DNA of 64,000 nucleotides, taken from Alphaproteobacteria bacterium. Its GTDB lineage: Bacteria; Pseudomonadota; Alphaproteobacteria; Rickettsiales; SXRF01. Of the stretch, positions 13,041 to 33,766 are shown piece by piece. How positions within the stretch are numbered: the stretch's first letter is position 1; each line of letters opens with the position of its first letter. The notes beneath the pieces are model-generated. The model made no database searches. It had not been told where the DNA came from and worked only from the letters and a program-made list of their open reading frames with translations. The stretch covers positions 2,193-66,192 of the forward strand of contig JANYBV010000040.1 in the NCBI GenBank assembly GCA_025360605.1, read 5' to 3'. The translations under genes were made by a program, and so were the position numbers.

Positions 13041-13057
13041 ATGCCTGCTTTATCGCC

Positions 13058-14910: not shown

Positions 14911-16128
14911 TCAGAGTCCCTTTTCGAGCGGATGATAGCTAAGTCCTACTAAAAACATATGCTCTTTAATGGCTCCGCTGGTGTTTGTAAGCGTTTGATT
15001 ATTATACTGATAATTCGTGTTAATATCCAGATTGGTAAGGAACCTGTACTGGATACCGGCAGAACCGGAAATTTCCCTGTCGAGATTCACGCCTGTTTTT
15101 TGGAGATAGTCAGCATAACGGTAAGAGGCCATGCCGGTTAGAGCTAGCTTATCATTGAGAGAGTGGGTTTCATTCGCCTTAAACGTAGTGAAAAGCGCTG
15201 AACTGCCGTTACCAAAAGGCTGCTGCGATCTTGACGTGTATAATACCAGATTGTCCTGTTGTTCTTTAAAGGCCAGATTTCCGGAAAATACATAGTTGAT
15301 TTGTGACTTGTCACTTGCGGTGTTGTTGCTCTGCGTGGAGTATTCCGCACCCGCCGACACCTTCGCCGTTATTTTAGGAGAAATAATGCGCGTCCAGCCC
15401 AGCGACGGGCCATATGAATCAGTGGTGTTCGCGGTTCCGCTTTTCGATTTATAGCGCTCACCCTTAATGGTCAGCATGCCGGTATTGATGGCATCAAAAC
15501 TATAGGAATACGATGGGGAAAATTGATAAAAATCATAATCAGTGAACGCCACATTGTCATAGGTGGACTGGGCAATATAGCCGGCAAGCCTGATTTTTTG
15601 GCCTAACGTAGGTGTGAAATTAATTTCAGGCGATGCTGACAATCCCAAATGCCGAACACTTGGAATGCTGATACCATAGTTCGTTATTTCGCTTGTTCTG
15701 GTTGTGTCGTAATCGAGCGTTCCACCCAATCCCGCAGACCAGCGCTCATTTTTGGTAAATAAGTTCGCTTTTTCGTGGAAATCGGTGGAATTAAACTTGT
15801 TATCGTCAAACAGCCCCTGATCTACCTCAGACATGGCAGAGAATTGCGAGGTGGGTGTATTATCATTCAACGTAAGGTTTACGGTTGAATTGCTGCCTGA
15901 AATCGAGATGTTGTTGTGAATCTGCCTTAATGGGTTCGAATCATAAAGCCAGTTTTCAGATGCCTGCAACTGTACATTCACAGCCGGAGGGGGATCCGGC
16001 AACGCCTGCGCATACAGCGAATCAGGCACCGGCACACTTGCCAAAAGAGCTAAGCATACCGTGAGTGCCTGTTCCCTGTATTTCGTCTGATATCTTGACC
16101 GGTACACCGGCAAGAGTGAGATCGACAT
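14911..16128 (-). CDS. putative outer-membrane beta-barrel protein paired with the OPX exporter
   Basis: About 405 aa with a signal-like N-terminus ending ...SLYAQA. Alternating hydrophobic beta-strand pattern rich in Y/S/T/N/G throughout. ATG at 16128; TTG at 16140 is possible. Located between the OPX and PCP genes. Confidence 0.5.
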   Translation of the reverse strand: MSISLLPVYRSRYQTKYREQALTVCLALLASVPVPDSLYAQALPDPPPAVNVQLQASENWLYDSNPLRQIHNNISISGSNSTVNLTLNDNTPTSQFSAMSEVDQGLFDDNKFNSTDFHEKANLFTKNERWSAGLGGTLDYDTTRTSEITNYGISIPSVRHLGLSASPEINFTPTLGQKIRLAGYIAQSTYDNVAFTDYDFYQFSPSYSYSFDAINTGMLTIKGERYKSKSGTANTTDSYGPSLGWTRIISPKITAKVSAGAEYSTQSNNTASDKSQINYVFSGNLAFKEQQDNLVLYTSRSQQPFGNGSSALFTTFKANETHSLNDKLALTGMASYRYADYLQKTGVNLDREISGSAGIQYRFLTNLDINTNYQYNNQTLTNTSGAIKEHMFLVGLSYHPLEKGL

Positions 16129-16140
16129 ACTGGTTTTCAA

Positions 16141-16959
16141 TTAAAAGAGGCTAGCGGTTGGAACGACAATGACATCACCAGGATTCAGAACAAAGTTCTT
16201 TTCCAGATTGTCACCTGAAACAATATCATCATAAGGGAATTCAATGGAGGTTTGTTTGCCATCCACGGTCCTCAGGACAATAATTCTGCCTTCGCTGGCG
16301 TAAGGTGTCAAACCACCGGCCTGACTCAGCGCCTGCATGACGGTCAGCTTGTGACCCATGATGATTTCACCTGGTTTCTGTACTTGGCCGATAACACTGA
16401 CCGTATGGCCCAGCGTTGCTTTTACCAACACGGCTACCGATGCGCCTGGGATCAGGGAGTGCAGCTTAGCTTTGATGGTTGATTGCAACTGTGCAGGGGT
16501 AAGGCCTTGCGCGTTAAAGGAACCGATCAGCGGGAAATCGATGGTGCCGTCTGGAAGAACAATTACTTCACGGTCGAGGTTTTCTTCTCTCCACACGGTG
16601 ATCTGTAATACGTCACCGGCGCGAACAGTGTAGTCAGAATCGCTGGCGGGTACCAGAGGTTCAACAGCAGCCACTTCTTTAGGCGTAACAACAGCTACTT
16701 CTTTTGGCTCAGATGGCGCTGCAACCTTGTCAGCGACTGGCTGAAGAGCTGGCGCCTTAGCGTGTTTTTTATTTTTTTCTGCTAATGGAGCTGCTTCAAC
16801 AGAGTCTGTCAAAGCGGATTCAACCGCTTTATCTTTTTTTGTTGCAGTTGCTGCATCAGTACCTACAATTTCAACAGGTGTTGAAGGAGCAGCAGAAGCG
16901 TTTACAGGAAACAACAAGAGAACGGGTAAGCAGCCTACTAAGCTTAAAACTTTATTCAT
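16141..16959 (-). CDS. polysaccharide export protein, short OPX (Wza/ExoF family)
   Basis: Signal peptide. Poly_export-type motif YTVRAGDVLQITVW...LPDGTIDFPLIG and an SLBB-like segment GDVIVVP. Only 272 aa, so it lacks the C-terminal OM-spanning helix region of Wza. Confidence 0.8.
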   Translation of the reverse strand: MNKVLSLVGCLPVLLLFPVNASAAPSTPVEIVGTDAATATKKDKAVESALTDSVEAAPLAEKNKKHAKAPALQPVADKVAAPSEPKEVAVVTPKEVAAVEPLVPASDSDYTVRAGDVLQITVWREENLDREVIVLPDGTIDFPLIGSFNAQGLTPAQLQSTIKAKLHSLIPGASVAVLVKATLGHTVSVIGQVQKPGEIIMGHKLTVMQALSQAGGLTPYASEGRIIVLRTVDGKQTSIEFPYDDIVSGDNLEKNFVLNPGDVIVVPTASLF

Positions 16960-18913: not shown

Positions 18914-20476
18914 ATGGTATCTCGTAATAATTCGATTTCTTCAGGACAAAATAATAAAAAAAACCAGACCATTAAGGTCGGTACTCCTGCGAATGACGTG
19001 AATAATGCCGCAGTACAGCTTTATGTTGAAAACAACACTCCAAACGCCAGCTGGATTTTAGGATTAAATAAAAAAAGAAAAAAAATCAATAGCTTGTTGC
19101 AGTTTTATGCCGTTACGGATGCGCTGGCTATTATCGTTGGGTATTTTATGGCATGGAGCATGTTGGCCATTGTTGCTCTGCCTGACTTACAGCAAACGGG
19201 TATCCTCACCTTTTATGAAATGAATCAATTCAGGGTTGGTAGCTATATCGCCGTGGCTCTTGGTTGTTTGCTCTGGTTCCAGTATAAAGGTCATTACCGC
19301 GTGCGGATGAACTTCTGGCTCGATTTACGCAATGTCATCAGCACCTTTGCCGTGGGCATGATGCTGAACTGCTTCCTTCAGGTATCTATTAAAAATGACC
19401 TGTCCCGACTCTGGCTGGTATTTGCATGGGTTTTTGCCGCATTCAACGTGGTGTTATTCCGTGGTATGTTCAGGCGCTACCTCCGTAATAACGGCGCGTG
19501 GAACGTACCTACGCTTCTGGTCGGCAGTGGTAAAACCGCCGAGGAAACGAAAATAGCGTTGCAGGCGGAAGTCAGCCTTGGTTATGTCATTACCGCCCAG
19601 ATAGACAATCTGCCGCTTGCGTTTATGCAGTCGGGCCGTTCATGGGAAAAGCTGTGTGATTCTCTCAATGTTGAATATGTGGTGATCGCCTTGGATGGCA
19701 AGGAAATGGATGAGGCAGAAAAGCCTATCGCGCAACTGATGCGTGAAAATATACCATTCTCCATTTCACCACCGCGCCGTAACCTTCCGGTTCTGGACAT
19801 GGTGCCGCAGTATTTCTTTAATTCGGATGTGAAGCTCCTGACCCATAACAGTGGCCTTGAGCAACCAATGCCGCGCATTGTAAAACGTACCTTTGATATT
19901 ATCGTGTCGGGTATTGCACTGGTTGTCATCAGTCCGGTGATGTTTTGCATCGCCATGCTGGTAAAGCGCGATGGCGGGTCGGTATTCTTTGGCCACAAAC
20001 GTATCGGTAAAAACGGCACGACATTCTCCTGCCTTAAGTTCCGCTCGATGATTGCCAATTCTCAGGCCGTTCTGGAGAAGCACCTTGCTGAAAATCCCGA
20101 GGCGAGGGCGGAATGGGCGGCGACACAGAAGCTGAAAAATGATCCGCGTGTGACCAAATTCGGCAATTTCCTGCGCGCCAGCAGCCTTGACGAATTACCA
20201 CAATTACTGAATGTATTACGCGGCGAGATGAGCCTTGTCGGCCCGCGTCCTATCGTTCAGGACGAAGTATCCAAATATGATTACGATATCGCGCATTACT
20301 ACCGCGTAAGCCCTGGTATCACCGGCTTATGGCAGGTGAGTGGACAAAACGATGTCAGCTATGCACAGCGTGTGAAAATGGATAGCTGGTATGTGCGTAA
20401 CTGGTCGCTATGGCATGATATCGCAATTTTATGTAAAACCATTCCCGCGTTGCTCAAACGTCAGGGTGCGTATTAA
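18914..20476 (+). CDS. polyprenyl-phosphate glycosyl-1-phosphate transferase (WbaP/EpsB/ExoY family, long form)
   Basis: N-terminal TM bundle and a C-terminal bacterial sugar transferase domain: [10 protein letters not shown]..., [41 protein letters not shown]. Confidence 0.85.
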
Positions 20477-20536: not shown

Positions 20537-21538
20537 ATGACACAATCAGTTTTGGTAGCCGGTGGCGCTGGTTACATCGGGTCGCATGTATGTAAAGTGC
20601 TGGCCCAGTCCGGTTATACTCCGGTTACGCTGGATAATCTATGCACGGGGCGGCGCGATTTTGTGCGCTTTGGCCCATTGGTGGAAGCCTCGGTGTCGGA
20701 CACTGCGGTGGTTGCCAGCACCGTAAAAAAATATGATATCAAGGCTGTCATTGATCTGGCGGGTTCCATTGAGGTCGCCGAATCGGTCAAAAATCCCCTG
20801 AAATATTATGATAATAATTTTGCGGTCAAAATTCCTTTCCTGAAAACGCTAAGCGAATGTGGCGTGAAGGCGGTGGTATTTTCATCGACTGCGGCGGTAT
20901 ATGGCGAGCCGGTGGTGGTTCCTATTCCTGAATCCCACCAGCTTATCCCAAAAAACCCCTACGGCAGCTCGAAGCTGGCGTATGAGCAATTGCTGCGCGA
21001 TTTTCATCTGGCGGGCGGGCCTGCGTGGATGGCGCTGCGTTATTTTAATGCTGCGGGTGCATCATTTGACGGCGATATCGGCGAATGTCACGAACCTGAA
21101 TCACACCTTATCCCGCTGGCATGCTTTGCTAATCTCGGGAAGAATGACGCGCTGAGCATTTTCGGAAATGATTACCCTACTCAGGACGGAACCGCTATTC
21201 GTGATTACATCCATGTGCTTGATCTTGCATCCGCGCATGTGCTGGCGGTGGAAGCGCTGTTAAAAGGGGCAGCTCCTACGGCCTACAATCTTGGCAACGG
21301 CATCGGCACATCCATTGGTGAAATCATGGCGTGCTTCGAGCGCATCGGGTTTCCCGTACCCCATACATTTAAACCGCGCCGCGCCGGTGATCCGATCCGT
21401 CTGGTCGCCGATTCAAGCGCCGCCAAGACAAATCTTGGCTGGACCCCGAAATATGCCGACATCGAAACTATTATCCGCTCCGCCCACCAGTGGCACACGA
21501 AGACGCTGGCGGCGGAAAAGAATGTGAAGGTGGGCTGA
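20537..21538 (+). CDS. galE: UDP-glucose 4-epimerase
   Basis: GGAGYIGSH Rossmann motif, SSTAAVYG and YGSSK (YxxxK), 333 aa. Confidence 0.85.
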   Translation: MTQSVLVAGGAGYIGSHVCKVLAQSGYTPVTLDNLCTGRRDFVRFGPLVEASVSDTAVVASTVKKYDIKAVIDLAGSIEVAESVKNPLKYYDNNFAVKIPFLKTLSECGVKAVVFSSTAAVYGEPVVVPIPESHQLIPKNPYGSSKLAYEQLLRDFHLAGGPAWMALRYFNAAGASFDGDIGECHEPESHLIPLACFANLGKNDALSIFGNDYPTQDGTAIRDYIHVLDLASAHVLAVEALLKGAAPTAYNLGNGIGTSIGEIMACFERIGFPVPHTFKPRRAGDPIRLVADSSAAKTNLGWTPKYADIETIIRSAHQWHTKTLAAEKNVKVG

Positions 21539-21540
21539 GC

Positions 21541-22815
21541 ATGTCAAAACCGCTTTTTTCACTGGATTTAACGCATGCCCTCGAGGCCGTGGATACAAAA
21601 CGTTATGATCACTGGCTCGATACGATAGTAAAGGCGTTACCGCGTATTCAGGCGCAGCCGCAAAGGGAAGCCAAGCCTGTGCTTGAACTGCCCGCTAAAA
21701 ATGACGACCTGAAAGACATTGAAGCGATCGCCAGAGCAATCTCTGACCATTTCGGTACGTTGCTGGTGGTGGGCATGGGCGGTTCGTCACTGAGCGCGGA
21801 AACGCTGGCGTATATTCATAAGCCTTCACGCGTGAAACTGGAATTCCTCGATAATATCGACCCCAAAACGATGGAAACACTGACCAATGCGCTGGACTGG
21901 AAAAATACCGCCGTCCTTGTGATCAGCAAATCGGGTAATACCATTGAAACGCTGGCGCAGATGTCGGTGTTGCTGAGCAAGGCAAAAAAAGTACTCGGCA
22001 CGAATATCTCCAAGCATTTCTTTGTCATTACGATCACGAATGATAATCCGCTGCATGCGGTAGCCAAGGCACACCAGATGAAGGTGTTGGCACATGACCC
22101 TGATCTGGGCGGGCGCTTTTCGATTCTGTCGTCGGTGGGGCTGATTCCCGCCGCTGCCATCGGCATGGACATTCGTGCCCTGCGTGAAGGCGCAAGGAAG
22201 GTGCTTGCAGTTAATTTTGATGCAACCACAACAGGCTGTGCCGCACGTTCGGCAGCGTTACACCGGTCACTGATTGAAAAAAATATCCGCCTTAACGTCA
22301 TGATGCATTACTGTGACCGTCTGGCGGGTCTTGCCAACTGGTACCGCCAGTGCTGGGGTGAAAGTTTGGGTAAATGCGTGGAAGCCTCAACTCCTATCCG
22401 CAGCCGTGGCACCACCGACCAGCATAGCCAGTTGCAGCTCTATCTCGACGGGCCGAAGGACAAGCTGTTTACCCTGATGCTACTGGATTGTGCAGGGCAG
22501 GGCGAACCTATCGCGTTTGAAGGGGCTGATGACAAGCGCCTTGAATTCATGAAGGGCCGCACGCTGGGTGACCTGATGGTGGCTGAACAAAAAGGAACGC
22601 TGGCAACTATGGTAAAACGCGGTTGCCCGCTGCGCAGCTTCACGATGAACGAGCTGAACGAAGAAGTGCTTGGCGGACTGCTGATGCATTTCACACTGGA
22701 AACCATGTTCACGGCGGAATTGCTGGGGGTTAATGCCTTTGACCAGCCGGCGGTGGAAGAGAGTAAAGTCCTCGCACTTCAGTATCTCGCCGAACTCAAA
22801 TCCAACGCAGCCTAG
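21541..22815 (+). CDS. pgi: glucose-6-phosphate isomerase (short form)
   Basis: GMGGSSL and ISKSGNTIET motifs with SIS-domain architecture. ATG at 21541 lies 2 nt after the galE stop and is preferred over the longer ORF starting at 21490. Confidence 0.75.
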   Translation: MSKPLFSLDLTHALEAVDTKRYDHWLDTIVKALPRIQAQPQREAKPVLELPAKNDDLKDIEAIARAISDHFGTLLVVGMGGSSLSAETLAYIHKPSRVKLEFLDNIDPKTMETLTNALDWKNTAVLVISKSGNTIETLAQMSVLLSKAKKVLGTNISKHFFVITITNDNPLHAVAKAHQMKVLAHDPDLGGRFSILSSVGLIPAAAIGMDIRALREGARKVLAVNFDATTTGCAARSAALHRSLIEKNIRLNVMMHYCDRLAGLANWYRQCWGESLGKCVEASTPIRSRGTTDQHSQLQLYLDGPKDKLFTLMLLDCAGQGEPIAFEGADDKRLEFMKGRTLGDLMVAEQKGTLATMVKRGCPLRSFTMNELNEEVLGGLLMHFTLETMFTAELLGVNAFDQPAVEESKVLALQYLAELKSNAA

Positions 22816-23915
22816 ATTAACGGGTATTTTAAACAGATCCTCTTGCCGAGATAGCGGAAGGGGACTTCCAGAAACACATAGCTGATGGTGGCAACACCCA
22901 GCGTGACCATGATGAACATTGCTCCCAACATGGGTTTTTCCAGATGTTTGAAATAGGTTGAATAGGTAAAGATGTAGCCAATCGGCAAATGCAGCAGATA
23001 GACCGAATAGCTGATGCGTCCCAAAAAACGGAATTGCGGCAGCCCGAAAAACCATCCGATCAGACTTTTCCTATACAGGCTTATGATGATGATGGCCGGA
23101 AAAATAAAAAGCTGGAAGATATAATCATCAGAGATGATGGACGGATAATCATGAAATCTCAGTAAGATAACGGTGGTCGCTGCCAGCACTATTTCAAAGC
23201 AAAACAGGAAAACCCAAGGAATGACGGGCAGGCGGAGGTGGTTGCGGTAGATGAGCACCCCCAGAGAAAAACCGACAATGCCGCGCGCTATAGTTTCATT
23301 GAAAATAGGCGTATTGGCCATGGACAGATGGAGCGTGTGCGGTGAGAGGTTGATCAGGTATATGCTGCACACCGCAATGCTGGCCCAGAGCAGATAGCTT
23401 GGCACAATGCGGAATTGCCAGACGAGCGAGAAATAGAGCAGGTTGACAATCCACTCCACCGATACTGACCACGCAGGACCGTTCCAAGGTTCCACCATGC
23501 CTCCGATGTTACCGAGCATGGTGAGCTGTAAAAACAACCGCCAGATGAAATTGGGGCCCATACCAAAATCGACAGCATTGCCATAATGCAATGGCTTTAA
23601 CACATAGGCATTGACGGCAAGAAAACAGCCAATGCTGATAATATAAAGCGGATACAGACGCGCAATGCGCTTGATGCAGAAGTGATGGAAGCTGACGGTG
23701 CGAAGCGCGATAGCGCCTTCATACTGGCGGGAGATAATGAATCCGGAGAGAATAAAAAAGAAATCCACGCCCAGATAACCATAGCTTGCGAACTGGGTAG
23801 AAGAAAACATGCCATAAAAGTGGAACAGCACCACGAACATGGATACAACGCCGCGCCAGCCTTCGAGAGGGGCTAGATAGGTTTTGCTGGTGATGAGGTG
23901 ATTAGGTTCGGTCAC
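22812..23915 (-). CDS. acyltransferase-3 family membrane protein (ExoZ-like position next to galE/pgi)
   Basis: LEGWRGVVSMFVVLFHF and GVDFFFILSGFII motifs, polytopic. GTG start. Its stop overlaps the pgi stop (convergent genes). Confidence 0.75.
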   Translation of the reverse strand: MTEPNHLITSKTYLAPLEGWRGVVSMFVVLFHFYGMFSSTQFASYGYLGVDFFFILSGFIISRQYEGAIALRTVSFHHFCIKRIARLYPLYIISIGCFLAVNAYVLKPLHYGNAVDFGMGPNFIWRLFLQLTMLGNIGGMVEPWNGPAWSVSVEWIVNLLYFSLVWQFRIVPSYLLWASIAVCSIYLINLSPHTLHLSMANTPIFNETIARGIVGFSLGVLIYRNHLRLPVIPWVFLFCFEIVLAATTVILLRFHDYPSIISDDYIFQLFIFPAIIIISLYRKSLIGWFFGLPQFRFLGRISYSVYLLHLPIGYIFTYSTYFKHLEKPMLGAMFIMVTLGVATISYVFLEVPFRYLGKRICLKYPLI

Positions 23916-24718: not shown

Positions 24719-25297
24719 GGTTTGCTCCTGCCACGTTTGTGGCGGGCTTGGGTCTATGCTGGCGAAATTGCCAGTGCAGGGTCGACCGAAACTCCCCGCA
24801 TGCGTATTGCTAACGGTACACGCGTACCGAAATAGCCGATGTAATCATCTCCAGGGACACTAAAAACGTGCCGTGGATCTAAGCCTTTCTATTTAACTTG
24901 CGAAAAATAGAAATCTTGGATGGTCGAATATTAACCTAATATTAAGATTCGGTCAATGTAATTCAGTTTTTAAGCTTGATAGCTGGATATCGAACAGCAT
25001 TCTTCCCTGATCTTAAAATAAAAAATTCAATTATATCAATTAGTTGATAAGGAAATCGGAACGCAGCCTCTGTGGGGATATTTTTGTTTTGTTTTTTTGT
25101 TCTTTGGCTGGATAACCCGTAACTTACCTGTTCATGGGGATCGTTCCATTAACGATATAGTTATTCTATGGCGCTAAAATCTTCAGGTAATCGCTTGCTT
25201 AAAGTGTAAAAATACATTAACAAACGCGGGTGGTTAAAATATGTTAACCTCTGGGTTGTTGTCGAAGTGAAGTGAGATAGAAAGCAATAGTCATTCA

Positions 25298-26563
25298 ATG
25301 GAATTTGCCCACGCAGTTTATAACATTATCGTTACGCTGATTGCCGTTTACACGGTCAGGCACTACGTGTTCACGCTCAACCGTCTGTACGGTGCGCAGC
25401 GCCATCCGTTTATCGACATCGATACGGCGAACTGGCCGACGGTGACGGTGCTTGTGGCCGCGCATAACGAAGAAGCGGTGATCATGAATTCGCTGGAAGC
25501 GCTGGTGAATGTGCATTACCCGCAAGAGCGCATCAAAATTGTTGTGGTGAATGACCGAAGCAAAGACAAAACCGGCGAGATCATTGAAGCCTACATGGCA
25601 AAATATCCCGGACGTATTTTCCATTTCGACCGCAAAGAGGGAAAACCAGGAAAAGCCGCCGCACTGAAGGATGCCACCGAAACTGTAACCAGCGATATCA
25701 TCGTGGTGTTCGATGCGGATTACATTCCGGGCCGCGGCTTGATTAAACAAATTGTATCGCCGTTCTTTGACCCCGAAACCGGACTTGTTATGGGGCGCGT
25801 GGTTCCTATCAACACCGGACATAATTTGCTCACGCGTTTGCTGGATATGGAACGTGCAGGCGGTTATCAGGTGGATCAGCAGGCACGCATGAATATGGGG
25901 CTTTTGCCGCAATATGGCGGCACAGTAGGTGGTGTTCGTATGGCGACCCTGCGTGACGTGGGTGGGTGGCATGATAATACGCTGGCGGAAGATACCGACC
26001 TGACGTACCGCGCGCTCTTGCGCGGCTGGAAAACGGTCTATCAGAACCGCTCTGAATGCTACGAGGAAGTGCCCGAAACATGGGCGGTGCGTATTCGCCA
26101 GATTATACGCTGGGCAAAGGGCCATAACCAGTCGCTGCGCCGTTATACGGGGGATGTGCTGAAAAACAGGAACCTGCGCTTCGCCGAGCGTCTGGACGCA
26201 CTATTACTGCTGGGTGTGTATGCCATGTCACCGGTTATCCTGATTGGCTGGGTGCTTGGGATTTACTTGTTCTATTGTGGAGAAATGCGCGTGTATGGTG
26301 GTTATTTGCCGCTGCTGGCACTAATCTCTTATTCGGCAGTCGGCAACACCGCCGCGTTTTTTGAAATTGCCGCTGCTGTATATCTTGATGGCGGGCGCAA
26401 ACGCCTGAGGCTGCTGCCGCTCAATTTCTTCAATTTTATGATCAGTACCATTTCCGTATCCCGCGGGATTATCACCTATGTTTTTGCTAAGCCGGAAGGA
26501 CGCGAAAAGTGGGAAAAGACGGAACGTTTCCGAACCCAAAACGCGGTTATTATGAGCCTATGA
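25298..26563 (+). CDS. processive family-2 glycosyltransferase (polysaccharide synthase; NodC/PgaC/YaiP-like)
   Basis: VAAHNEE, VVNDRSKDKT, FDADY (DxD), LAEDTDLTYR and RQIIRWAKG (QxxRW). One N-terminal and several C-terminal TM helices. Confidence 0.85.
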   Translation: MEFAHAVYNIIVTLIAVYTVRHYVFTLNRLYGAQRHPFIDIDTANWPTVTVLVAAHNEEAVIMNSLEALVNVHYPQERIKIVVVNDRSKDKTGEIIEAYMAKYPGRIFHFDRKEGKPGKAAALKDATETVTSDIIVVFDADYIPGRGLIKQIVSPFFDPETGLVMGRVVPINTGHNLLTRLLDMERAGGYQVDQQARMNMGLLPQYGGTVGGVRMATLRDVGGWHDNTLAEDTDLTYRALLRGWKTVYQNRSECYEEVPETWAVRIRQIIRWAKGHNQSLRRYTGDVLKNRNLRFAERLDALLLLGVYAMSPVILIGWVLGIYLFYCGEMRVYGGYLPLLALISYSAVGNTAAFFEIAAAVYLDGGRKRLRLLPLNFFNFMISTISVSRGIITYVFAKPEGREKWEKTERFRTQNAVIMSL

Positions 26564-27723
26564 TGAGCTGGCCCACCATATTGGTACTTGTGACCATCGG
26601 TTTGTTCATGTTGCCGCTGATACCAGCGATCATGGAACTGTACATGCCGACGGACATCACCCCGCTGAAAGTGGTGCAGGCCTATGACAATAATCCGATG
26701 CATTTTGCCAACGGTTTCAGGAATTATGTGCACAAGCAATTTGCTGTCACCAGCATCAGCGAATTACAGGAGCGCACGCTGGTTAAGGGACAACTGGAAG
26801 ATGGCACTAATTATCACATATTACAGGAATCCGACAATGGCAGTCCCGCTCAGGATATGGAAAAAGAACAGGTATTGATCTCGCACCATCCGATTATCCT
26901 GCCAGCGGATAAAGTGTACGAAGCTGAAATTTACTCCGCCAGCAATATCTCCACAGGAAAAAATTCCCGTTTCCGCGCGCTACTCTCCGACAATACGCTG
27001 ACGCTGAATGACGACTGCGTGGTGCTGCGCTGGGTTCACAGTGAAAACGATATGATGGTAGGGGAAAATTCGATTCTTTTGGGCAGGGCCACCTCAAACA
27101 ATACGATCACCCTTTCCAAGGGATGTTTTTTCGAGCGTTTAAACGCCAGAAAAATTATCACGGTGGAAGAGCTGCCATCTAAAACCATCGATACCTCCAT
27201 AGAACGGACATTTTTGGAAGCCTTAAAGGATGTCAAAATTCAGGCCGGAAGACGAAGCTTGCTGGAGGGTAACCTTGATTTCCCTGCTTACCATACGTTT
27301 GACGGCGATATTGTGGCGGGCACGACGGCTATTATTGGCGATTACGCTCACATTAAGGGCAGCGTAAAAAGTAACGCGATGAACGACATCACCTACTATC
27401 TGCAAAAGACAGGCGTTGTTCCCAATAAAGAAAAAAATATCGCCCGCTGCGAGCTGGGACATTATGTGAGGATCGATGGTTCACTGGTCAGCACGCACGA
27501 TCTGTATATCGGTGAAAATTGCTGGATTGGCGGACCTGTGATTGCAGAAAATCTGCTCGTTATCCGCAGCGGAACGGTGATTGGAACGCCTGAGCAGCCT
27601 TGCACTGTAACGGCGGCTAACATCATTATTGAAAGTGGTTGCGTAATTTACGGAACATTGTGGGCGGGTAAACAGGGGCAGGTGACCGGCCCGCAACATA
27701 ATGTGGAAGGGCTTGCCGCATGA
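26560..27723 (+). CDS. membrane-anchored protein with two bactofilin-like (polymer-forming cytoskeletal type) beta-helix modules
   Basis: ATGA overlap with the synthase gene. N-terminal TM segment (WPTILVLVTIGLFMLPLIPAIM). Two regions of short G/N-x-hydrophobic repeats, e.g. FDGDIVAGTTAIIGDYAHIKGSV... and LYIGENCWIGGPVIAENLLVIRSGTVIG... Confidence 0.6.
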   Translation: MMSWPTILVLVTIGLFMLPLIPAIMELYMPTDITPLKVVQAYDNNPMHFANGFRNYVHKQFAVTSISELQERTLVKGQLEDGTNYHILQESDNGSPAQDMEKEQVLISHHPIILPADKVYEAEIYSASNISTGKNSRFRALLSDNTLTLNDDCVVLRWVHSENDMMVGENSILLGRATSNNTITLSKGCFFERLNARKIITVEELPSKTIDTSIERTFLEALKDVKIQAGRRSLLEGNLDFPAYHTFDGDIVAGTTAIIGDYAHIKGSVKSNAMNDITYYLQKTGVVPNKEKNIARCELGHYVRIDGSLVSTHDLYIGENCWIGGPVIAENLLVIRSGTVIGTPEQPCTVTAANIIIESGCVIYGTLWAGKQGQVTGPQHNVEGLAA

Positions 27724-28775
27724 GGTTCATGTTCACATTATTGTCATTGATGGTGCTGCTATTGTTGGCGCAGGAGGCTATGGCTAAAAAAACGAAGCTT
27801 ATTGCCCCTAGTCCGATTGGCAAAGAACTTAAGCTCGATCCTATTTATCTGCGTCCGGACGGGGCAATTATGACGCTGACCAGCGGACAGCTGGTTGACC
27901 CCTATTTTCCGACCAAGGCGCTGCTGATTGCTCAGGACAGCGGTATGGATATTTCTAAAATTGCCGGCGACTGGATTAAGTGGATGCTGGCCCGCCAAGA
28001 CAGCAGCGGGTTATTTTTCCGTTATTGTTTTAAGGAGAATGATACAACGTATACGGCCTGTGCGGAAGCGGATGCGGACGATGCCATGCTGGCGATGTGG
28101 ATTGAACTGCTTTACCGTATGGCACCCAGAAAAGGGCTTCCTAAAGAATGGAAGGAAAGTGCTGACAAGGCCGAGTATCAGCTAAATTCAATTTATAACC
28201 CAAAAGCGACGGTGTTCTTTGTTTCCAAATCCATGCAGGCAGGCTTGCTCATGGATAATATCGAAATTTACTCTGCATTTAAACGTATTGAGCGTGACGC
28301 GGTGCGCTTGGGTGATGGGAAAAAAGCGGTTGAGTATCGTGGCAAAGCCGAGCAGCTGAAAATCGGCATTATAGGCAATTTCTGGGATGATAAAAACAAG
28401 CGTTTCATTGCCTCTACACAGGCTCGCACCGAGACCAAATTTTATCCCGATGTCGTTGACCAGCTGGTGCCGATGATGCACGGTTTTTCTGTTACTAAAA
28501 TTCCATCAGAAAACAGCTTTTATAAAAGCTGGATTAAACACCATAAAAATGAATGGTTCGCACTTTTGGGTAAGGATTATCCATGGGGCTTGTTGGCTGT
28601 GATGGCGGAAAAACGTGGTGACCACAATACGTCGGGTTGCTGGCTGAAGCTTTCTGCGCCATCAAGGCATTCCGCAATCTGGAATGTCATGGACGAAACT
28701 GCATTCCAGATTGTGGAATGGAAGCTCGGAAAGAAAAAGATTGATGATAAGCAGTGCGCAGGAGGTGCATTATGA
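27720..28775 (+). CDS. periplasmic protein of unknown family (possible alpha/alpha-toroid polysaccharide hydrolase/modifier)
   Basis: ATGA overlap with the upstream gene. Signal peptide MRFMFTLLSLMVLLLLAQEAMA. Helix-rich and W/Y-rich sequence. The function is inferred only from operon position. Confidence 0.55.
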   Translation: MRFMFTLLSLMVLLLLAQEAMAKKTKLIAPSPIGKELKLDPIYLRPDGAIMTLTSGQLVDPYFPTKALLIAQDSGMDISKIAGDWIKWMLARQDSSGLFFRYCFKENDTTYTACAEADADDAMLAMWIELLYRMAPRKGLPKEWKESADKAEYQLNSIYNPKATVFFVSKSMQAGLLMDNIEIYSAFKRIERDAVRLGDGKKAVEYRGKAEQLKIGIIGNFWDDKNKRFIASTQARTETKFYPDVVDQLVPMMHGFSVTKIPSENSFYKSWIKHHKNEWFALLGKDYPWGLLAVMAEKRGDHNTSGCWLKLSAPSRHSAIWNVMDETAFQIVEWKLGKKKIDDKQCAGGAL

Positions 28776-30022
28776 TTCATAAGCATGGTTCTACTATCTT
28801 GTTGTCCATGGGAACGCGGCCTGAAATCATCAAGATGGCGCCTGTGTATCTGGAATTGAAAAAACGTGGTGCCCAGCCGTTGTTATTGCACACGGGTCAG
28901 CATAGTGACATGGCGACGGCACTGTATAACCTGTTTGGCATGGTTCCTGATTACCATATCGACCTAAAGCGTGATTCTAAACCAGTGATCCTGAACGGGG
29001 AAGCCAAAGCCTCTGATCTGGCTGAACTCAGCAGCTCGTTGCTTCTGGAATGCTCTAAAATTCTGACTATGGCTGACCCTTCAATCGTGCTTGTCCATGG
29101 TGATACCAGCAGTGCGCTGATGATGACACTGGCAGCCTATTACCATAAATGCAAAATTGCCCATGTTGAGGCCGGATTACGTTCGTTTGACGAGCATAAC
29201 CCGTTTCCGGAAGAGAAGAACCGCGCGCTCATCGGTCAGATGGCGCACTGGCATTTTGCCCCGACCATCCGCGCCCGCAATAACCTGCGCAGCGAGGGAA
29301 TAGCCGATAATACCATTTTTGTAGTGGGTAACACCATTGTTCAGGCGGCTAAACTCGGCGCGGATTTGCTGGAAGCGCAGCGTAAAAAGAAAGACGACAG
29401 CGTTCCCGATCTGGTGGATAAGCTGAGTAAAAAAATGGAAGATATGCGGATGGTTCTTGTAACTAGTCACCGCCGCGAAAACCATCATGAGGGTTTGCGC
29501 TCGATTGCAAAATCGGTTCTGGAATTGCTCAAAACCCATAAAGATATGTTCGTTGTGTGGCCTATCCATCCGAATCCTAGTGTCATGAAAATTGTGCATG
29601 AAGAAGTAGGACATCTGGAAGGCGAGCTGGCGGAACGCCTGTTCCTCACCAAACCACTGAGCTATCCGGTGCTGTTATGGACCCTGAAACATTCATGGGT
29701 GGTGCTTACCGATTCCGGCGGGATTCAGGAAGAAGCGGTGTCGCTGAATACGCCTGTGCTTATCCTTCGCAAAACCACGGAACGCCCCGAGGTGATTGAG
29801 GTTGGGGCAGGGGCGCTTGTGGGAACCAATAGCGAGCGCATTTTGTCAACGGTTGCCCAGCTGACGAATAATCCTGATCAATATGAAGCAATGAGGAATG
29901 TCACCAATCCGTTTGGCGATACGCGCGTGGCCAATACGATCTGTAATATTTTGTTGGGCAAAGAAACCATCCGCCAACAACCTAAAAATCCTCCGTTTTT
30001 ACAAGAGTCGTCGCATGTCTAG
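28772..30022 (+). CDS. wecB: UDP-N-acetylglucosamine 2-epimerase (non-hydrolysing)
   Basis: GGAGG RBS and an ATGA overlap with the upstream gene. Motifs ILLSMGTRPEIIKMAPV, HVEAGLRSFD..PFPEEKNR and TDSGGIQEE. Confidence 0.85.
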   Translation: MIHKHGSTILLSMGTRPEIIKMAPVYLELKKRGAQPLLLHTGQHSDMATALYNLFGMVPDYHIDLKRDSKPVILNGEAKASDLAELSSSLLLECSKILTMADPSIVLVHGDTSSALMMTLAAYYHKCKIAHVEAGLRSFDEHNPFPEEKNRALIGQMAHWHFAPTIRARNNLRSEGIADNTIFVVGNTIVQAAKLGADLLEAQRKKKDDSVPDLVDKLSKKMEDMRMVLVTSHRRENHHEGLRSIAKSVLELLKTHKDMFVVWPIHPNPSVMKIVHEEVGHLEGELAERLFLTKPLSYPVLLWTLKHSWVVLTDSGGIQEEAVSLNTPVLILRKTTERPEVIEVGAGALVGTNSERILSTVAQLTNNPDQYEAMRNVTNPFGDTRVANTICNILLGKETIRQQPKNPPFLQESSHV

Positions 30023-31025
30023 AATTTTCTGTTCCACCATTTTAGCCTTATACTTCACCTCGGGGGTATGCCTCGCCGACACTACGCCTGCATCTGACGT
30101 ATCGGAAGCGCAGATTTTTGCGATCAATGATCCTGCCATCACTATGCCTACGGATACCACGCCTGCATGGTTGAATAAAATGGCATCTCCGCCGGTATTT
30201 TTGCGTAAAAACGAAGCGCAGAACCCGAACGATAAACCGCCAGAAGATCAAAACGCCCAGTCCGCCAATGCGGCTGTCAGCACGCCGGCTACGGACAGCG
30301 AATATATTCCACCGCTCATTCCCAACTATATTGAGGCGGGTTTCAATTATTACAATGTGACGCATAATTACGGCAACAGCTTCGGCCAGTTCGTTAATGC
30401 CCAGTACCAGACGGACCCATGGAACCGCTGGAGCGCAGGATTACAACATGCACAGGCATTTCATGACCAGGGTGAAGCCGCTTCTCTTGCTAATAACCAC
30501 ACCTTCAACGAAGATTGGTATAGTGACGTCGGCGTAAGTGTTGGCAGTCCTGCTTCATTCCTTACCCGTTATCGCGGGGATGCGTCGCTGAGCCGCCGCT
30601 GGCTTGAGAACCGCAATTTTATCACCTCGCTCGGGTTCACTTATGACAAGGCCAATAAAACCTACAGCGACCGTACGATTCATCTGAATTTTGCCTATTA
30701 TTTCCTGTCGCCATGGGTGATTCAGACTGGATTTAACCTCAACGACAGCACACCAGGGAATGTGATTGCACCGTCCGCATTCATTGCGCTGACGTATGGC
30801 TATCAGGGCAAGTACTTCCTGACTGCACGTTATGGTTTTGCACATGAAGCGTACCAGCTGCTTAATTCAGGCAACATCCAGAATTCATTCACCAGCCACA
30901 CAATGGGTGCAAATTGGCGGCAATGGCTTGGATCCGATTGGGGATTCAATCTCGGCACCGAATTTTATATCAATCCCTACTATACGCGCACCGGTGGGAT
31001 TGTTAGCGTTTTCAAGGAATTTTAA
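30015..31025 (+). CDS. outer-membrane beta-barrel protein (YaiO-like by recollection)
   Basis: Signal peptide MSRIFCSTILALYFTSGVCLA. Alternating beta-strand pattern (AGFNYYNVTHNYGNSFG...). C-terminus ...GGIVSVFKEF ends in Phe. 8-nt overlap with wecB. Confidence 0.6.
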   Translation: MSRIFCSTILALYFTSGVCLADTTPASDVSEAQIFAINDPAITMPTDTTPAWLNKMASPPVFLRKNEAQNPNDKPPEDQNAQSANAAVSTPATDSEYIPPLIPNYIEAGFNYYNVTHNYGNSFGQFVNAQYQTDPWNRWSAGLQHAQAFHDQGEAASLANNHTFNEDWYSDVGVSVGSPASFLTRYRGDASLSRRWLENRNFITSLGFTYDKANKTYSDRTIHLNFAYYFLSPWVIQTGFNLNDSTPGNVIAPSAFIALTYGYQGKYFLTARYGFAHEAYQLLNSGNIQNSFTSHTMGANWRQWLGSDWGFNLGTEFYINPYYTRTGGIVSVFKEF

Positions 31026-31027
31026 GA

Positions 31028-31840
31028 ATGAAATCGTCTGAACTGCTCAAACAACTACGGTTTATCCGCTACCACAACTCTCAGGGGCGCGTGATCCCGA
31101 TTCACCACGCGTTTAAAACCATTGAGCTGAACAGTTTTTCACGTACCAGTGCGATTATTTTACCTGTTTTATTCCTGTCTGTATTCTGGCTGATGCTGCC
31201 TGAAATTTTAGATTTCTGGGCGGGGGTGATGAATTTCTGGATGCAACGCATCTATCAGGCAGTCGTGAATTACGAGCAGGTGAGTATTCTCGGACAAAAT
31301 GTATATGTACCCTATCCAATGCTTGAAGCCGAAATGCCTAGTAAAAGACTGGTTTTACTTAATCTGATTATTTGCTTTGTGGTGTTTGCGTTGAGCCTGT
31401 TGTTGCCGAAGAAATGGATTCCGCTGACGTATTTAATGCGTACATTGCTGTTGATTCAGGGATCAGCTTCTGTGAATCGCTTACTTTCTCCTGATTTTTT
31501 TCCGTACACGATGAAGATTTACATGCTGGATTCGCTGACCTTATGTGTCTACATGCTCATGGTGTTGCCGTTGTTGCTTGGGCTTGTGTATTACATCTTT
31601 GACTTTCCGGTGTGGCGAAAGTGCCTGCTGACTATTCTCATGCTGGTATATTATCTGTTGTTCATCCCGTGCCAGTACACGTTGCATGCCTATCTGATCC
31701 ATGAATATTCCATGATTATGCTGCCTGTTTTATACATATTCTTCGGGGTGCTGCTGGATGTACTTACATTTGTCAGTATTTACTCGTTTGGTATGAGCTG
31801 GCGCAGTCGCCGCAATGCGCTGAGAGGTCGTGGGGCATAA
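31028..31840 (+). CDS. polytopic inner-membrane protein, unknown family
   Basis: 270 aa and about 6-7 hydrophobic helices. Starts 2 nt after the barrel gene stop. Last gene of the operon. Confidence 0.6.
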   Translation: MKSSELLKQLRFIRYHNSQGRVIPIHHAFKTIELNSFSRTSAIILPVLFLSVFWLMLPEILDFWAGVMNFWMQRIYQAVVNYEQVSILGQNVYVPYPMLEAEMPSKRLVLLNLIICFVVFALSLLLPKKWIPLTYLMRTLLLIQGSASVNRLLSPDFFPYTMKIYMLDSLTLCVYMLMVLPLLLGLVYYIFDFPVWRKCLLTILMLVYYLLFIPCQYTLHAYLIHEYSMIMLPVLYIFFGVLLDVLTFVSIYSFGMSWRSRRNALRGRGA

Positions 31841-32006: not shown

Positions 32007-32657
32007 ATGAGCGAAGAATCAAAAATAAAGCGTTTTTCAGGCACCATCGCATTTGTGATATGCTTTGTTATCGGCTGTATGTTTTTGTATTGGGCTGTTG
32101 AATACTGGGTATATAACAGCTTCGATTCTAACCGCTATGAATTGTCCAAAATTCAGGTGGGCAACAGCGATTCGCTCAGCACATGGAAACTCGACAAACG
32201 TACCGGAAATCTTGAATACTGCACGAAATCTTATGAAAAGATGGATCATTTCGTGTGCGTTCGTTCGGTGACGATTGATGCCAAAGAATACTCCAATGTT
32301 CCAGAGGCAGTAGCCGCTACGGCTCCGGCGACTGCAACAGGAACTGCTACGGCCACTGCGCCAGCAACAGGAACTGCTACGGCCACCGCGCCAGCAATCG
32401 CTACCGGAACTGCCACTGCTCCGGCGCAAGCTGCTACTTCACCTGCTCAGTCGGCTACCACGACTACTACAGCAACCGCTCCGGCTGAAGCGCCTCCTGC
32501 ACCGCCAGCGCCTCCTGCGCCACCAGAAATAGCCACCGCGCCTGCCACCGCTACGGAACCGGCTGTGGACGAAGTGAAAGAACCTGCCAAGCCCGTAGCG
32601 GCTAAAGCCGCACCGGTGAAGCCAACGCCGCATAACAATAATAAAAAACATCAATAA
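32007..32657 (+). CDS. membrane-anchored protein with Ala/Thr/Pro-rich repetitive tail
   Basis: AGGAAG RBS. TM segment (IAFVICFVIGCMFLYWAV), a small 2-Cys domain, then (ATGTATATAP)n and PPAPPAPPAPP low-complexity sequence, and a basic C-terminus. Confidence 0.55.
   Translation: MSEESKIKRFSGTIAFVICFVIGCMFLYWAVEYWVYNSFDSNRYELSKIQVGNSDSLSTWKLDKRTGNLEYCTKSYEKMDHFVCVRSVTIDAKEYSNVPEAVAATAPATATGTATATAPATGTATATAPAIATGTATAPAQAATSPAQSATTTTTATAPAEAPPAPPAPPAPPEIATAPATATEPAVDEVKEPAKPVAAKAAPVKPTPHNNNKKHQ
32334..32423 (+). repeat. 30-bp coding tandem repeat, about 3 copies
   Basis: gcaacaggaactgctacggccac[t/c]gcgcca occurs at 32334-32363 and 32364-32393. A degenerate third copy lies at 32394-32423. Confidence 0.8.
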
Positions 32658-32848: not shown

Positions 32849-33766
32849 GTGAAGAAGTTCTCTCAGGTTCGTCGTGGCGGTTTTACCCTCGTCGAAGTCT
32901 TGGTGGTGATTGCTATCATCGCTATCCTTATCGGCCTGCTTTTGCCAGCTGTACAAGCAGCCCGCAACGCGGCCAGCCGGATGCAGAGCGTCAACCACCT
33001 CAAGCAGGTGGCCCTCGCGATGCACAACTTCCACGATGCGCATAATGCCTTTCCACAGAACGGCAACGATGCCGGTGGAAACATTCTGCGTAGCTGGATG
33101 GTTGATCTGGGTCCGTATGTTGAGGCGCAAGTCTCAAGCTACGATCCAACGACACCGTTCTGCGACGGCAACAACGCAACGACCTTCGGACTCAACTGTC
33201 CAAAGGTCTACACCTTGCCTTGGTTCAATATGGGTTCAAACCCTGGTGAACAAGGCATTGGTCTTGTCTGTGGTGAAAGCTACAACATGTACGACATCTC
33301 CAGCCGATCCTCGTTGGATTGGAGCTACTGGCAGTTGTCTACCGGAGGATTCGTCCCCCGCACCCCTACAGGAGTCGGGCGAACGGCTAAAAACCGATCG
33401 CTGCCAGGATTTCCTGCTAACCCGAAGGTGAACATATCTTCGATCACTGATGGTACCTCAAACACCATCATGCTCGCACCGCTCGCCGGCTACGTCGAAT
33501 ACAACGATGCGCAAGCAGACATGTACAGACGAACCGTGTGGACCAACCCAGCCTTCGGGCTCGTGGACGGTACAAGGGCGATGGAAGTGACACTCGGAAA
33601 ACCGCTTCAGATGGACGACCTGCAAAGGCACGTCGTCGGAATGCGAAACGGGCTGACCCTCATCGCGAAAGCAGATGGTTCAGCAGGCGTGTACAACGTC
33701 AACATCCTGATGCTGCCCAACTTGAGTAAAATCAATTCGGGTGCCATCAAGAACTTCGGCGAGTAA
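32849..33766 (+). CDS. DUF1559 / H-X9-DG-type protein with prepilin-type N-terminal cleavage-methylation motif (Planctomycetes-type pseudopilin-like)
   Basis: GTG start 7 nt after AGGAG. N-terminus RRGGFTLVEVLVVIAIIAILIGLLLPAVQAARNAASRMQSVNHLKQVALAMHNFHD. Mid-protein SSITDGTSNTIML and C-terminal ...KADGS... Strong C-ending codon preference. Confidence 0.8.
   Translation: MKKFSQVRRGGFTLVEVLVVIAIIAILIGLLLPAVQAARNAASRMQSVNHLKQVALAMHNFHDAHNAFPQNGNDAGGNILRSWMVDLGPYVEAQVSSYDPTTPFCDGNNATTFGLNCPKVYTLPWFNMGSNPGEQGIGLVCGESYNMYDISSRSSLDWSYWQLSTGGFVPRTPTGVGRTAKNRSLPGFPANPKVNISSITDGTSNTIMLAPLAGYVEYNDAQADMYRRTVWTNPAFGLVDGTRAMEVTLGKPLQMDDLQRHVVGMRNGLTLIAKADGSAGVYNVNILMLPNLSKINSGAIKNFGE

Follow-up and report, generated by a model that had tools for sequence, protein, structure and literature searches.

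A 64-kb stretch of DNA from an Alphaproteobacteria bacterium (contig JANYBV010000040.1; the whole stretch of 64,000 nucleotides is called the window) contains six consecutive genes at 25298-31840, which we interpret as one self-contained module for the synthase-dependent biosynthesis and export of an exopolysaccharide (EPS). To this reading we assign a probability of roughly 0.68. The genes, referred to as genes 1 to 6 (Table 1), encode a family-2 glycosyltransferase (GT2), a probably bactofilin-like beta-helix protein, a secreted protein, the UDP-N-acetylglucosamine (UDP-GlcNAc) 2-epimerase WecB, a YaiO-type outer-membrane barrel and a polytopic membrane protein. Their product is probably a beta-linked surface polysaccharide containing N-acetylmannosamine (ManNAc). 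The data show how the six genes are arranged, to which families genes 1, 4 and 5 belong, which fold classes genes 2 and 6 have and that the module is conserved across phyla. The module thus exists as a conserved unit, and our searches gave no sign that it has been characterized. Its novelty lies in gene 6, which has no known relatives, in the unusual bactofilin-like gene 2 and in an outer-membrane component of the YaiO type.

The six co-directional open reading frames (ORFs) reported in an initial annotation of this DNA were reproduced from the sequence with all coordinates and junctions, and each ORF was found to end with one terminal stop codon. ATGA overlaps exist at 26560, 27720 and 28772, while genes 4 and 5 share 8 nucleotides (nt) at 30015-30022 and genes 5 and 6 are separated by a gap of 2 nt (31026-31027). 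The 4-nt and 8-nt overlaps were seen again in two relatives (L001 and L003). A strong AGGAGG lies 7 nt 5' of the start codon of gene 4. For gene 2, the public record uses an alternative GTG start at 26509, resulting in a protein of 404 amino acids (aa) and a 55-nt overlap with gene 1. The N-termini of homologs favor the ATG at 26560, and gene 2 of relatives begins 3 nt past the GT2 stop codon. The apparent conservation of the GTG extension in close relatives is probably the shadow of the C-terminus of gene 1 in the other frame. The region upstream of gene 1 is indeed AT-rich (GC 0.40 versus 0.478 in the window). It contains a weak sigma-70-like match, TTAACA-17-TATGTT, at 25217-25245, and did not disclose any Rfam family at E<=1, riboswitches for cyclic di-GMP (c-di-GMP) included.

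To place the operon in a wider context, 80 fetched loci were surveyed; the gene 2 family itself has members in no fewer than 116 species genomes, a lower bound limited by the search pattern. The survey, which the initial annotation had proposed, showed that the GT2, the YaiO-like barrel and the beta-helix protein strongly tend to occur together, and with them WecB and gene 6, in three phyla-level groups. In 70 of the 80 loci all five genes resided on one strand, and eight of the ten incomplete loci were cut by contig ends. All module matches were co-directional in each of the 80 loci, an arrangement far beyond chance. The loci span Acidobacteriota, Burkholderiales and metagenome-assembled genomes (MAGs) labeled Alphaproteobacteria, and those inspected in detail have differing flanking genes. 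Four main gene orders were distinguished. The order of the window is common to MAGs labeled Alphaproteobacteria or Rickettsiales, the Acidobacteriota mostly show WecB-GT2-gene 2-X-YaiO-gene 6, and two further orders occur in Burkholderiales. X is a protein of 600-700 aa with weak, sub-threshold matches to polysaccharide deacetylases of carbohydrate esterase family 4 (CE4) in five of five cases tested. Homologous clusters with the complete set are also carried by Burkholderia cenocepacia and Cupriavidus, whose gene-2-like and gene-6-like proteins gave HHalign probabilities of 98.6-100% against alignments of which they were not part. In B. cenocepacia a GlmS gene adjoins the module. WecB was kept in the module in all lineages through several independent rearrangements. 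Across phyla the GT2 is 56-64% identical, whereas identities of genes 2, 5 and 6 go down to 24-39%, indicating a strongly constrained catalytic core with partners that evolve faster. Plasmid carriage was discarded, as the one match found is located on an unannotated 1.6-Mb Cupriavidus chromid.

Gene 1 exhibits the complete signature of a processive GT2 previously claimed for it: FDADY (D139xD141), AEDTD (E231-D232) and RQIIRWAKG (Q268xxRW), with QIIRW at residues 268-272. It matched Pfam Glyco_tranf_2_3 (E=1e-31), and its top NCBIfam match was PgaC_IcaA (TIGR03937) with 131 bits, the equivalog cutoff being 422. BcsA was the top match in the PDB (E=2e-18, residues 11-332). When compared with E. 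coli proteins, gene 1 gave 90 bits with PgaC (E=1e-28), 60 with BcsA, 32 with YaiP and no score with NfrB. Its top matches are the processive synthases PgaC, BcsA and NodC, and the alignment runs through the interface helices. D86 (the UDP-binding Asp), D139xD141, E231-D232 and W405-x-K-T-x-R410 were invariant or nearly invariant in 74 homologs. The C-terminal WxKTxR (WEKTER) follows the same pattern as FxVTxK, the gating loop of BcsA (FNVTAK in E. coli). By its motifs, gene 1 thus appears to supply the first hallmark of the synthase-dependent class, a processive-type inner-membrane glycosyltransferase with D,D,D,QxxRW and a transmembrane (TM) region of its own. The GT2 of Burkholderiales (B. 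cenocepacia, L090 2067-3629) possesses an extra N-terminus of about 100 aa, composed of a hydrophobic segment and a subsequent low-complexity Ala/Pro-rich part, which is absent in gene 1 of the window.

The designation of gene 4 as a non-hydrolyzing UDP-GlcNAc 2-epimerase was corroborated by TIGR00236 wecB (381 bits versus a cutoff of 210, full-length coverage) and Pfam Epimerase_2 (E=6e-95). By family score gene 4 is WecB, and its enzyme activity is predicted. Gene 5, described earlier as a signal-peptide beta-barrel ending in Phe, has the C-terminus ...VFKEF and matched the YaiO domain model TIGR04390 (OMP_YaiO_dom) with 132 bits (cutoff 32) at residues 106-336, as well as Pfam YaiO (PF19413) with E=6e-20 and 72 bits versus a cutoff of 23.9. 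It would provide the second hallmark of the class, an operon-encoded outer-membrane barrel, whose role as a polysaccharide porin is putative. A profile search did not reveal any relatives of gene 5 in the PDB, and a relationship to the barrels of PgaA, BcsC or NfrA was rejected, as HHalign found no similarity. In the closest relative (L001, 11408-13159) the YaiO protein comprises 583 aa compared with 336 aa here; the extra sequence has no Pfam match.

Gene 2 is probably a membrane-anchored, cytoplasm-facing bactofilin-like beta-helix. Its AlphaFold2 model (predicted local distance difference test, pLDDT, 82; predicted TM-score, pTM, 0.77) consists of N-terminal helices followed by a long beta-solenoid, for which Foldseek found no significant neighbor in the PDB (best E=0.17). 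The window protein reached 23 bits on Bactofilin (PF04519; Pfam cutoff 27.9), and this family was matched by 15 of 15 gene 2 family members at E<0.01 (best 4e-8). The likeness to bactofilins consists of these matches, which fall on the C-terminal part of the protein, and of the modeled solenoid. Unlike bactofilins, gene 2 has a true N-terminal TM helix and a conserved juxtamembrane motif, and its solenoid is about three times as long as the 98-position bactofilin profile. The motif, LPLxPxxxE..D..PL, is invariant in the family, as are many Arg residues, which would suit an anionic ligand. In every surveyed locus gene 2 is situated directly downstream of the GT2. The solenoid is predicted to be cytoplasmic because positive charges follow the TM helix of the homologs and because of the topology of a fusion protein (P0314, see below). 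Bactofilins position envelope enzymes according to work cited in PMC8892547. By analogy, gene 2 could act as a scaffold, as bactofilins do for other envelope enzymes, or as a regulator. An acyltransferase of the left-handed beta-helix (LbH, hexapeptide) type was also considered and rejected. Matches to such enzymes were marginal (LpxD, E=0.0015 by profile; WcaF, E=0.003), Hexapep was found in one of 15 members, and the Foldseek probabilities for LpxD and GlmU were <=0.09.

Among the six parts, gene 6 is by our searches the only one entirely without relatives. Neither Pfam nor NCBIfam gave a match, even when 22 family members were scanned at E<=1. No relative was found in the PDB by sequence or profile, and the best Foldseek hit in this database had E=0.57. 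An identity as BcsF, BcsG, PgaD or one of the other components compared was dismissed, as HHalign yielded no match. The family numbers 577 representatives at 50% identity. The AlphaFold2 model (pLDDT 84.6, pTM 0.75) shows six long helices and a beta-hairpin (80-97), which in the model lies in the first external loop. Most of the invariant residues are Pro, Gly or aromatic ones, and they do not form an obvious catalytic set. Two rare in-frame fusions were encountered. In P0288 gene 6 is joined to the GT2, which speaks for a common complex in the inner membrane. P0314 joins a gene-2-like protein to gene 6; its topology makes sense only with both ends of the junction in the cytoplasm, which would place the solenoid there as well. 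Moreover, four ORFs (P0258, P0305, P0325 and P0252) contain the gene 6 domain, a signal-peptide-like segment and the YaiO barrel in one frame. They may represent read-through, gene-calling merges or a polyprotein cut by signal peptidase; the internal signal peptide indicates neighboring genes that share a frame.

Gene 3 does not belong to the core of the module. Only 26 of the 80 loci contain it, although its family extends further, and most Acidobacteriota loci lack it and have the CE4-like protein in its place. The protein's N-terminus (MRFMFTLLSLMVLLLLAQEAMA, with cleavage before KK) is a cleavable signal peptide. Gene 3 probably encodes an (alpha/alpha)6-toroid glycan-active enzyme, as suggested by matches of 12 of 23 family members to PF22422 MGH1-like_GH below the cutoff, by matches of single members to Trehalase and Prenyltrans and by marginal matches to other alpha/alpha toroids in a PDB profile search. 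D118, D120, D121, D179, E182, D301 and E326 are invariant, together with many Trp and Tyr residues. In Methylomonas (L051) the fusion partners of the gene 3 domain, recognized there by HHalign with a probability of 100%, are an fn3-like domain and CBM25, the latter above the Pfam cutoff. Thus, the initial suggestion that three of the six parts are new holds for gene 6, while gene 2 appears to be related to bactofilins and gene 3 resembles (alpha/alpha)6 glycosidases at sub-threshold level.

From these components we infer a donor sugar, processivity, export, an association of the products of genes 1, 2 and 6 and individual roles of genes 2, 3 and 6, as follows. WecB would convert UDP-GlcNAc to UDP-ManNAc in the cytoplasm. 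UDP-ManNAc is favored as donor because WecB is retained in the module. GT2 enzymes are inverting, and a beta linkage is therefore to be expected. The GT2 of the module would polymerize a beta-linked, ManNAc-containing chain and thread it across the inner membrane by its own TM region. The cytoplasmic beta-helix of gene 2 may be a scaffold, organizer or regulator of the synthase, and the six-helix inner-membrane protein of gene 6 a structural or channel co-subunit. These roles are suggested by the obligatory adjacency to the synthase, the predicted topology and the rare fusions, and in the case of gene 6 also by the residue pattern devoid of an obvious catalytic set. We propose that both proteins are synthase partners absent from any described system. 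The glycanase-like gene 3 product would trim or process the chain in the periplasm, before the YaiO-type barrel would pass it across the outer membrane; the presence of a barrel and a secreted protein fits periplasmic processing and outer-membrane export. Both the CE4-like protein of other lineages and the GlmS gene beside the B. cenocepacia module fit an N-acetyl-hexosamine polymer. A bolder version of this scheme, which we advance tentatively and regard as rather unlikely as a whole, is that a membrane-anchored bactofilin-like polymer and the six-helix subunit assemble with a PgaC-like ManNAc synthase. This would constitute an unrecognized, widespread class of cytoskeleton-organized export by YaiO barrels lacking tetratricopeptide repeats (TPR), which would also occur, so far unstudied, in Burkholderia cepacia complex (Bcc) pathogens and in soil Acidobacteriota, which are abundant.

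Several points weigh against a synthase-dependent EPS module. Its polymer is a prediction, known here from genes alone. TPR periplasmic scaffolds and c-di-GMP receptors are usual in Gram-negative synthase systems. In the six proteins, Pfam and NCBIfam disclosed neither a TPR family at E<=0.1 nor a c-di-GMP receptor (PilZ, I-site, MshEN, GIL). Judged by its genes, the module has the two core features of synthase-dependent secretion described above and lacks a recognizable TPR scaffold and c-di-GMP receptor. YaiO barrels are not known to conduct polysaccharides, and the barrel of gene 5 appears small, with about 230 aa and, from the alternating pattern, roughly 14 strands. The fold of gene 3 was assigned by sub-threshold sequence matches. 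P0288 and P0314 are each known from one database representative and may have arisen by faulty gene calling, and the gene 6-YaiO fusions were down-weighted as evidence for a physical link, since they retain an internal signal peptide. In a promoter and terminator scan, counts were not above shuffle expectation, the promoter-like matches of the leader region included, so that the status of a single transcript is deduced from translational coupling only. Finally, gene 1 has weak matches to Glyco_transf_21, HpnI and HpnB, and GT2s of the QxxRW type include non-processive lipid glycosyltransferases.

In agreement with the initial annotation, a motif scan detected no ORF with a GGDEF, EAL or PilZ motif across the 64-kb window. 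GGDEF-motif ORFs adjoin the module in some Acidobacteriota loci (motif scan only). Large GGDEF-motif ORFs were also noticed divergently upstream of WecB in most of the Polaromonas-type loci (L070-L087; motif scan only), and a Terriglobales locus (L004/L015, 70-2841) is flanked by a GAF-GGDEF-HD-PilZ protein according to precomputed Pfam matches. These neighbors hint at a c-di-GMP control in some lineages, the window being without any of them.

The first alternative concerns the sugar. The same machinery might use UDP-GlcNAc alone and produce a polymer resembling poly-N-acetylglucosamine (PNAG) or chitin, or it might use GlcNAc and ManNAc in turn, in the manner of hyaluronan synthases with their two donors, with WecB supplying a minor or priming sugar. 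We consider this unlikely, though worth keeping in mind. PgaC_IcaA is the top family match of gene 1, but the score is far from the equivalog cutoff (131 versus 422 bits), and no PgaD, PgaB or PgaA is present. The CE4 deacetylase-like partner of other lineages parallels PgaB and IcaB, the adjacent GlmS gene of B. cenocepacia agrees with such a product, and the WecB reaction is reversible (PMC8669469). However, WecB was kept in every lineage despite changes of the gene order, an observation not easily reconciled with UDP-GlcNAc as the sole donor.

Less probable is a synthase of the WbbF type, which would build a ManNAc chain on undecaprenyl phosphate for lipopolysaccharide (LPS) or another anchor, similar to an O antigen or capsule, and leave the barrel with another role. 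The WbbF cluster of Salmonella O:54 encodes a WecB homolog and makes a ManNAc homopolymer. WbbF is a synthase-type enzyme that polymerizes and translocates an O antigen linked to undecaprenyl phosphate (PMC2841628). Near the module, the window moreover harbors a Wzx/Wzy cluster, among whose products are a Wzy_C protein and an initiating Bac_transf. In other phyla, however, the module travels as a unit without Wzx/Wzy neighbors, and it does not contain a priming transferase. Its own outer-membrane barrel, which is always present, and the putative periplasmic glycan-active protein, which usually is, suit free export.

It is more improbable still that gene 1 encodes a non-processive glycolipid glycosyltransferase, which would attach an amino sugar to a hopanoid, ceramide or diacylglycerol, the other genes modifying or trafficking the lipid. 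The weak matches to Glyco_transf_21, HpnI and HpnB point in this direction, and the D,D,D,QxxRW motif set is also found in ceramide glucosyltransferases. Yet the top matches of gene 1 are processive synthases aligned through the interface helices, the WxKTxR gating-loop pattern is invariant, and the CBM25 fused to a gene 3 domain as well as the CE4-like partners point to a polysaccharide substrate. Chance adjacency of the six genes, or their membership in the Wzx/Wzy cluster about 5 kb away, was effectively refuted by the neighborhood survey. In the latter case the YaiO barrel could, for instance, be the porin partner of the short outer-membrane polysaccharide export (OPX) protein of this cluster, which has Poly_export and SLBB domains only; such proteins reportedly depend on a distinct beta-barrel porin (PMC9603273). 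In the survey, however, the five core genes occurred together in 70 of 80 loci and matches were co-directional in all 80, with differing flanks in the loci inspected in detail. WecB and gene 5 moreover share 8 nt both in the window and in relatives.

The operon has several neighbors in the window that deserve mention. A complete Wzx/Wzy-type polysaccharide cluster, which also has a GT2, lies just upstream (60-20476; Table 1). Its OPX protein has no Wza_C domain and may therefore need a separate beta-barrel partner, for which an unassigned 409-aa ORF at 14911-16140 is a candidate. A membrane acyltransferase (Acyl_transf_3, E=2e-21) is encoded on the minus strand at 22812-23915 and transcribed divergently to the operon. 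The closest relative, L001, shows this synteny, other phyla do not; the enzyme may O-acetylate the polymer of the operon or that of the neighboring cluster. Just 3' of gene 6, a 216-aa ORF (32007-32657) without family match in our searches encodes a single TM helix together with an extended repeat rich in Ala, Thr and Pro (ATGTATATAPATGTA...); L001 contains a shorter, unassigned ORF at the same place, and elsewhere the ORF is not kept with the module. At 32849-33766 a protein with a prepilin-type N-methylation motif and DUF1559 (SBP_bac_10) was identified. The DUF1559 family is typical of Planctomycetota and Verrucomicrobiota, which is at odds with the Alphaproteobacteria and Rickettsiales labels of the closest MAGs, so that these labels may be unreliable.

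Table 1. Features of the operon and of neighboring polysaccharide genes in the window
Feature	Position	Strand	Size	Description
Leader/promoter region 5' of gene 1	24719-25297	.	579 bp	AT-rich
Gene 1	25298-26563	+	421 aa	Membrane-embedded processive-type family-2 glycosyltransferase (synthase)
Gene 2	26560-27723	+	387 aa	Single-pass membrane anchor and bactofilin-like beta-helix (probable)
Gene 3	27720-28775	+	351 aa	Signal-peptide protein, probably (alpha/alpha)6-toroid glycan-active enzyme; variable component
Gene 4	28772-30022	+	416 aa	Non-hydrolyzing UDP-GlcNAc 2-epimerase (WecB; activity predicted)
Gene 5	30015-31025	+	336 aa	YaiO-family outer-membrane beta-barrel, signal peptide, ~100-aa low-complexity linker
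Gene 6	31028-31840	+	270 aa	Polytopic inner-membrane protein, uncatalogued family
Wzx flippase	3567-5015			
Wzy_C	4989-6299			
Acyl_transf_3	11084-12145			
GNVR chain-length protein and P-loop ATPase	12174-14854			
OPX protein	16141-16959			Short; Poly_export and SLBB
Initiating Bac_transf	18914-20476			
GalE-like	20537-21538			
PGI	21490-22815			

The number of synthase-dependent systems that are understood is small (cellulose, PNAG, alginate, Pel and Nfr), and they form the basis of biofilm formation, recognition by phages and interaction with hosts. The module described here would follow the same overall logic, but other proteins would stand where such systems usually have a co-polymerase, a TPR scaffold and a c-di-GMP receptor. 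It would give the YaiO barrel family its first proposed function and would connect the making of a polysaccharide with a protein of the bactofilin type. What the module produces could be a matrix or surface glycan that has been overlooked so far and that matters clinically (Bcc) and ecologically (soil Acidobacteriota). Since carriers such as B. cenocepacia, other Bcc members, Cupriavidus, Massilia, Polaromonas and Pseudorhodoferax are cultured and genetically tractable, the hypothesis is directly testable.

A placement of the six proteins in a characterized EPS pathway was not obtained by Pfam and NCBIfam searches, sequence and profile searches of the PDB or AlphaFold2 and Foldseek, in line with the initial annotation, which had matched genes 2, 3 and 6 neither to Bcs nor to Pga; no accessory protein matched a component of Bcs, Pga, Nfr or the E. 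coli Yai proteins. Neither these searches nor the neighborhood survey refuted the initial interpretation. No published description of the module was found in the open-access literature, an account in a subscription journal being possible. A paper on Rubrivivax biofilms was set aside, as it concerns an unrelated Wzy/PEP-CTERM cluster.

The Nfr system of E. coli (NfrB-NfrA-YbcH with WecB/NfrC), which forms the N4 glycan receptor, resembles the module in its synthase-type GT2, in UDP-ManNAc made by WecB as the inferred donor and in export by an outer-membrane barrel. In the literature UDP-ManNAc was likewise deduced as the donor of NfrB from the role of WecB, and nfrB and wecB are directly linked in the genomes of other species (PMC8669469). 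The initial annotation had mentioned NfrB as a synthase supplied with UDP-ManNAc by WecB; the GT2 is closest to PgaC and without detectable similarity to NfrB. Homology to Nfr was rejected altogether because BLASTP, phmmer and HHalign found no match to NfrB, NfrA or YbcH, leaving WecB as the only shared link. Gene 1, in contrast to NfrB, has no MshEN c-di-GMP domain, and the barrel is of the YaiO type without TPR repeats.

The parallel drawn earlier to yaiP-yaiO of E. coli K-12 proved to be loose. In the uncharacterized yaiS-yaiP-yaiX-yaiO locus a GT2 (YaiP), the beta-helix-type YaiX and the YaiO barrel are encoded on one strand, YaiX being an 'acyltransferase' pseudogene split by IS2. However, YaiP is 25% identical to gene 1 over the GT-A domain and without a QxxRW match, and the locus encodes the deacetylase YaiS and no WecB, gene-3-like or gene-6-like protein. 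Gene 2 aligned with YaiX at E=0.16 and gene 5 gave no pairwise match with YaiO, for which reasons an orthologous locus was rejected. By these comparisons the yai locus is a loose architectural analog and no ortholog.

By description, the module also resembles the pssA-E operon of Listeria monocytogenes, which is dedicated to a poly-beta-1,4-ManNAc decorated with galactose and is activated by c-di-GMP (PMC5039582). It demonstrates that ManNAc homopolymer backbones exist, although the system belongs to a Gram-positive bacterium and has no outer-membrane component. The Bcs system (BcsA-BcsB-BcsZ-BcsC) shares with the module the GT2 fold, the motifs and gating-loop pattern and an outer-membrane barrel, and in concept a periplasmic (alpha/alpha)6-type glycanase partner (BcsZ versus the putative enzyme of gene 3). 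The module differs by the absence of PilZ and BcsB and by its sugar-nucleotide supply, and comparisons of gene 3 with BcsZ and of gene 5 with the BcsC barrel revealed no similarity. As to Pga (PgaABCD of E. coli, which makes PNAG), membership failed because PgaD, PgaB and PgaA gave HHalign probabilities of <=0.5% against the profiles of genes 2, 3, 5 and 6. The module encodes WecB, a bactofilin-like and a six-TM protein, which Pga lacks, and a c-di-GMP element is not recognizable in the window. With Pga it nevertheless has in common a small membrane GT2 synthase, an outer-membrane beta-barrel and, in some of its versions, a periplasmic CE4 deacetylase-like protein comparable to PgaB, and the N-acetyl-hexosamine polymer of PNAG probably has a counterpart here too.

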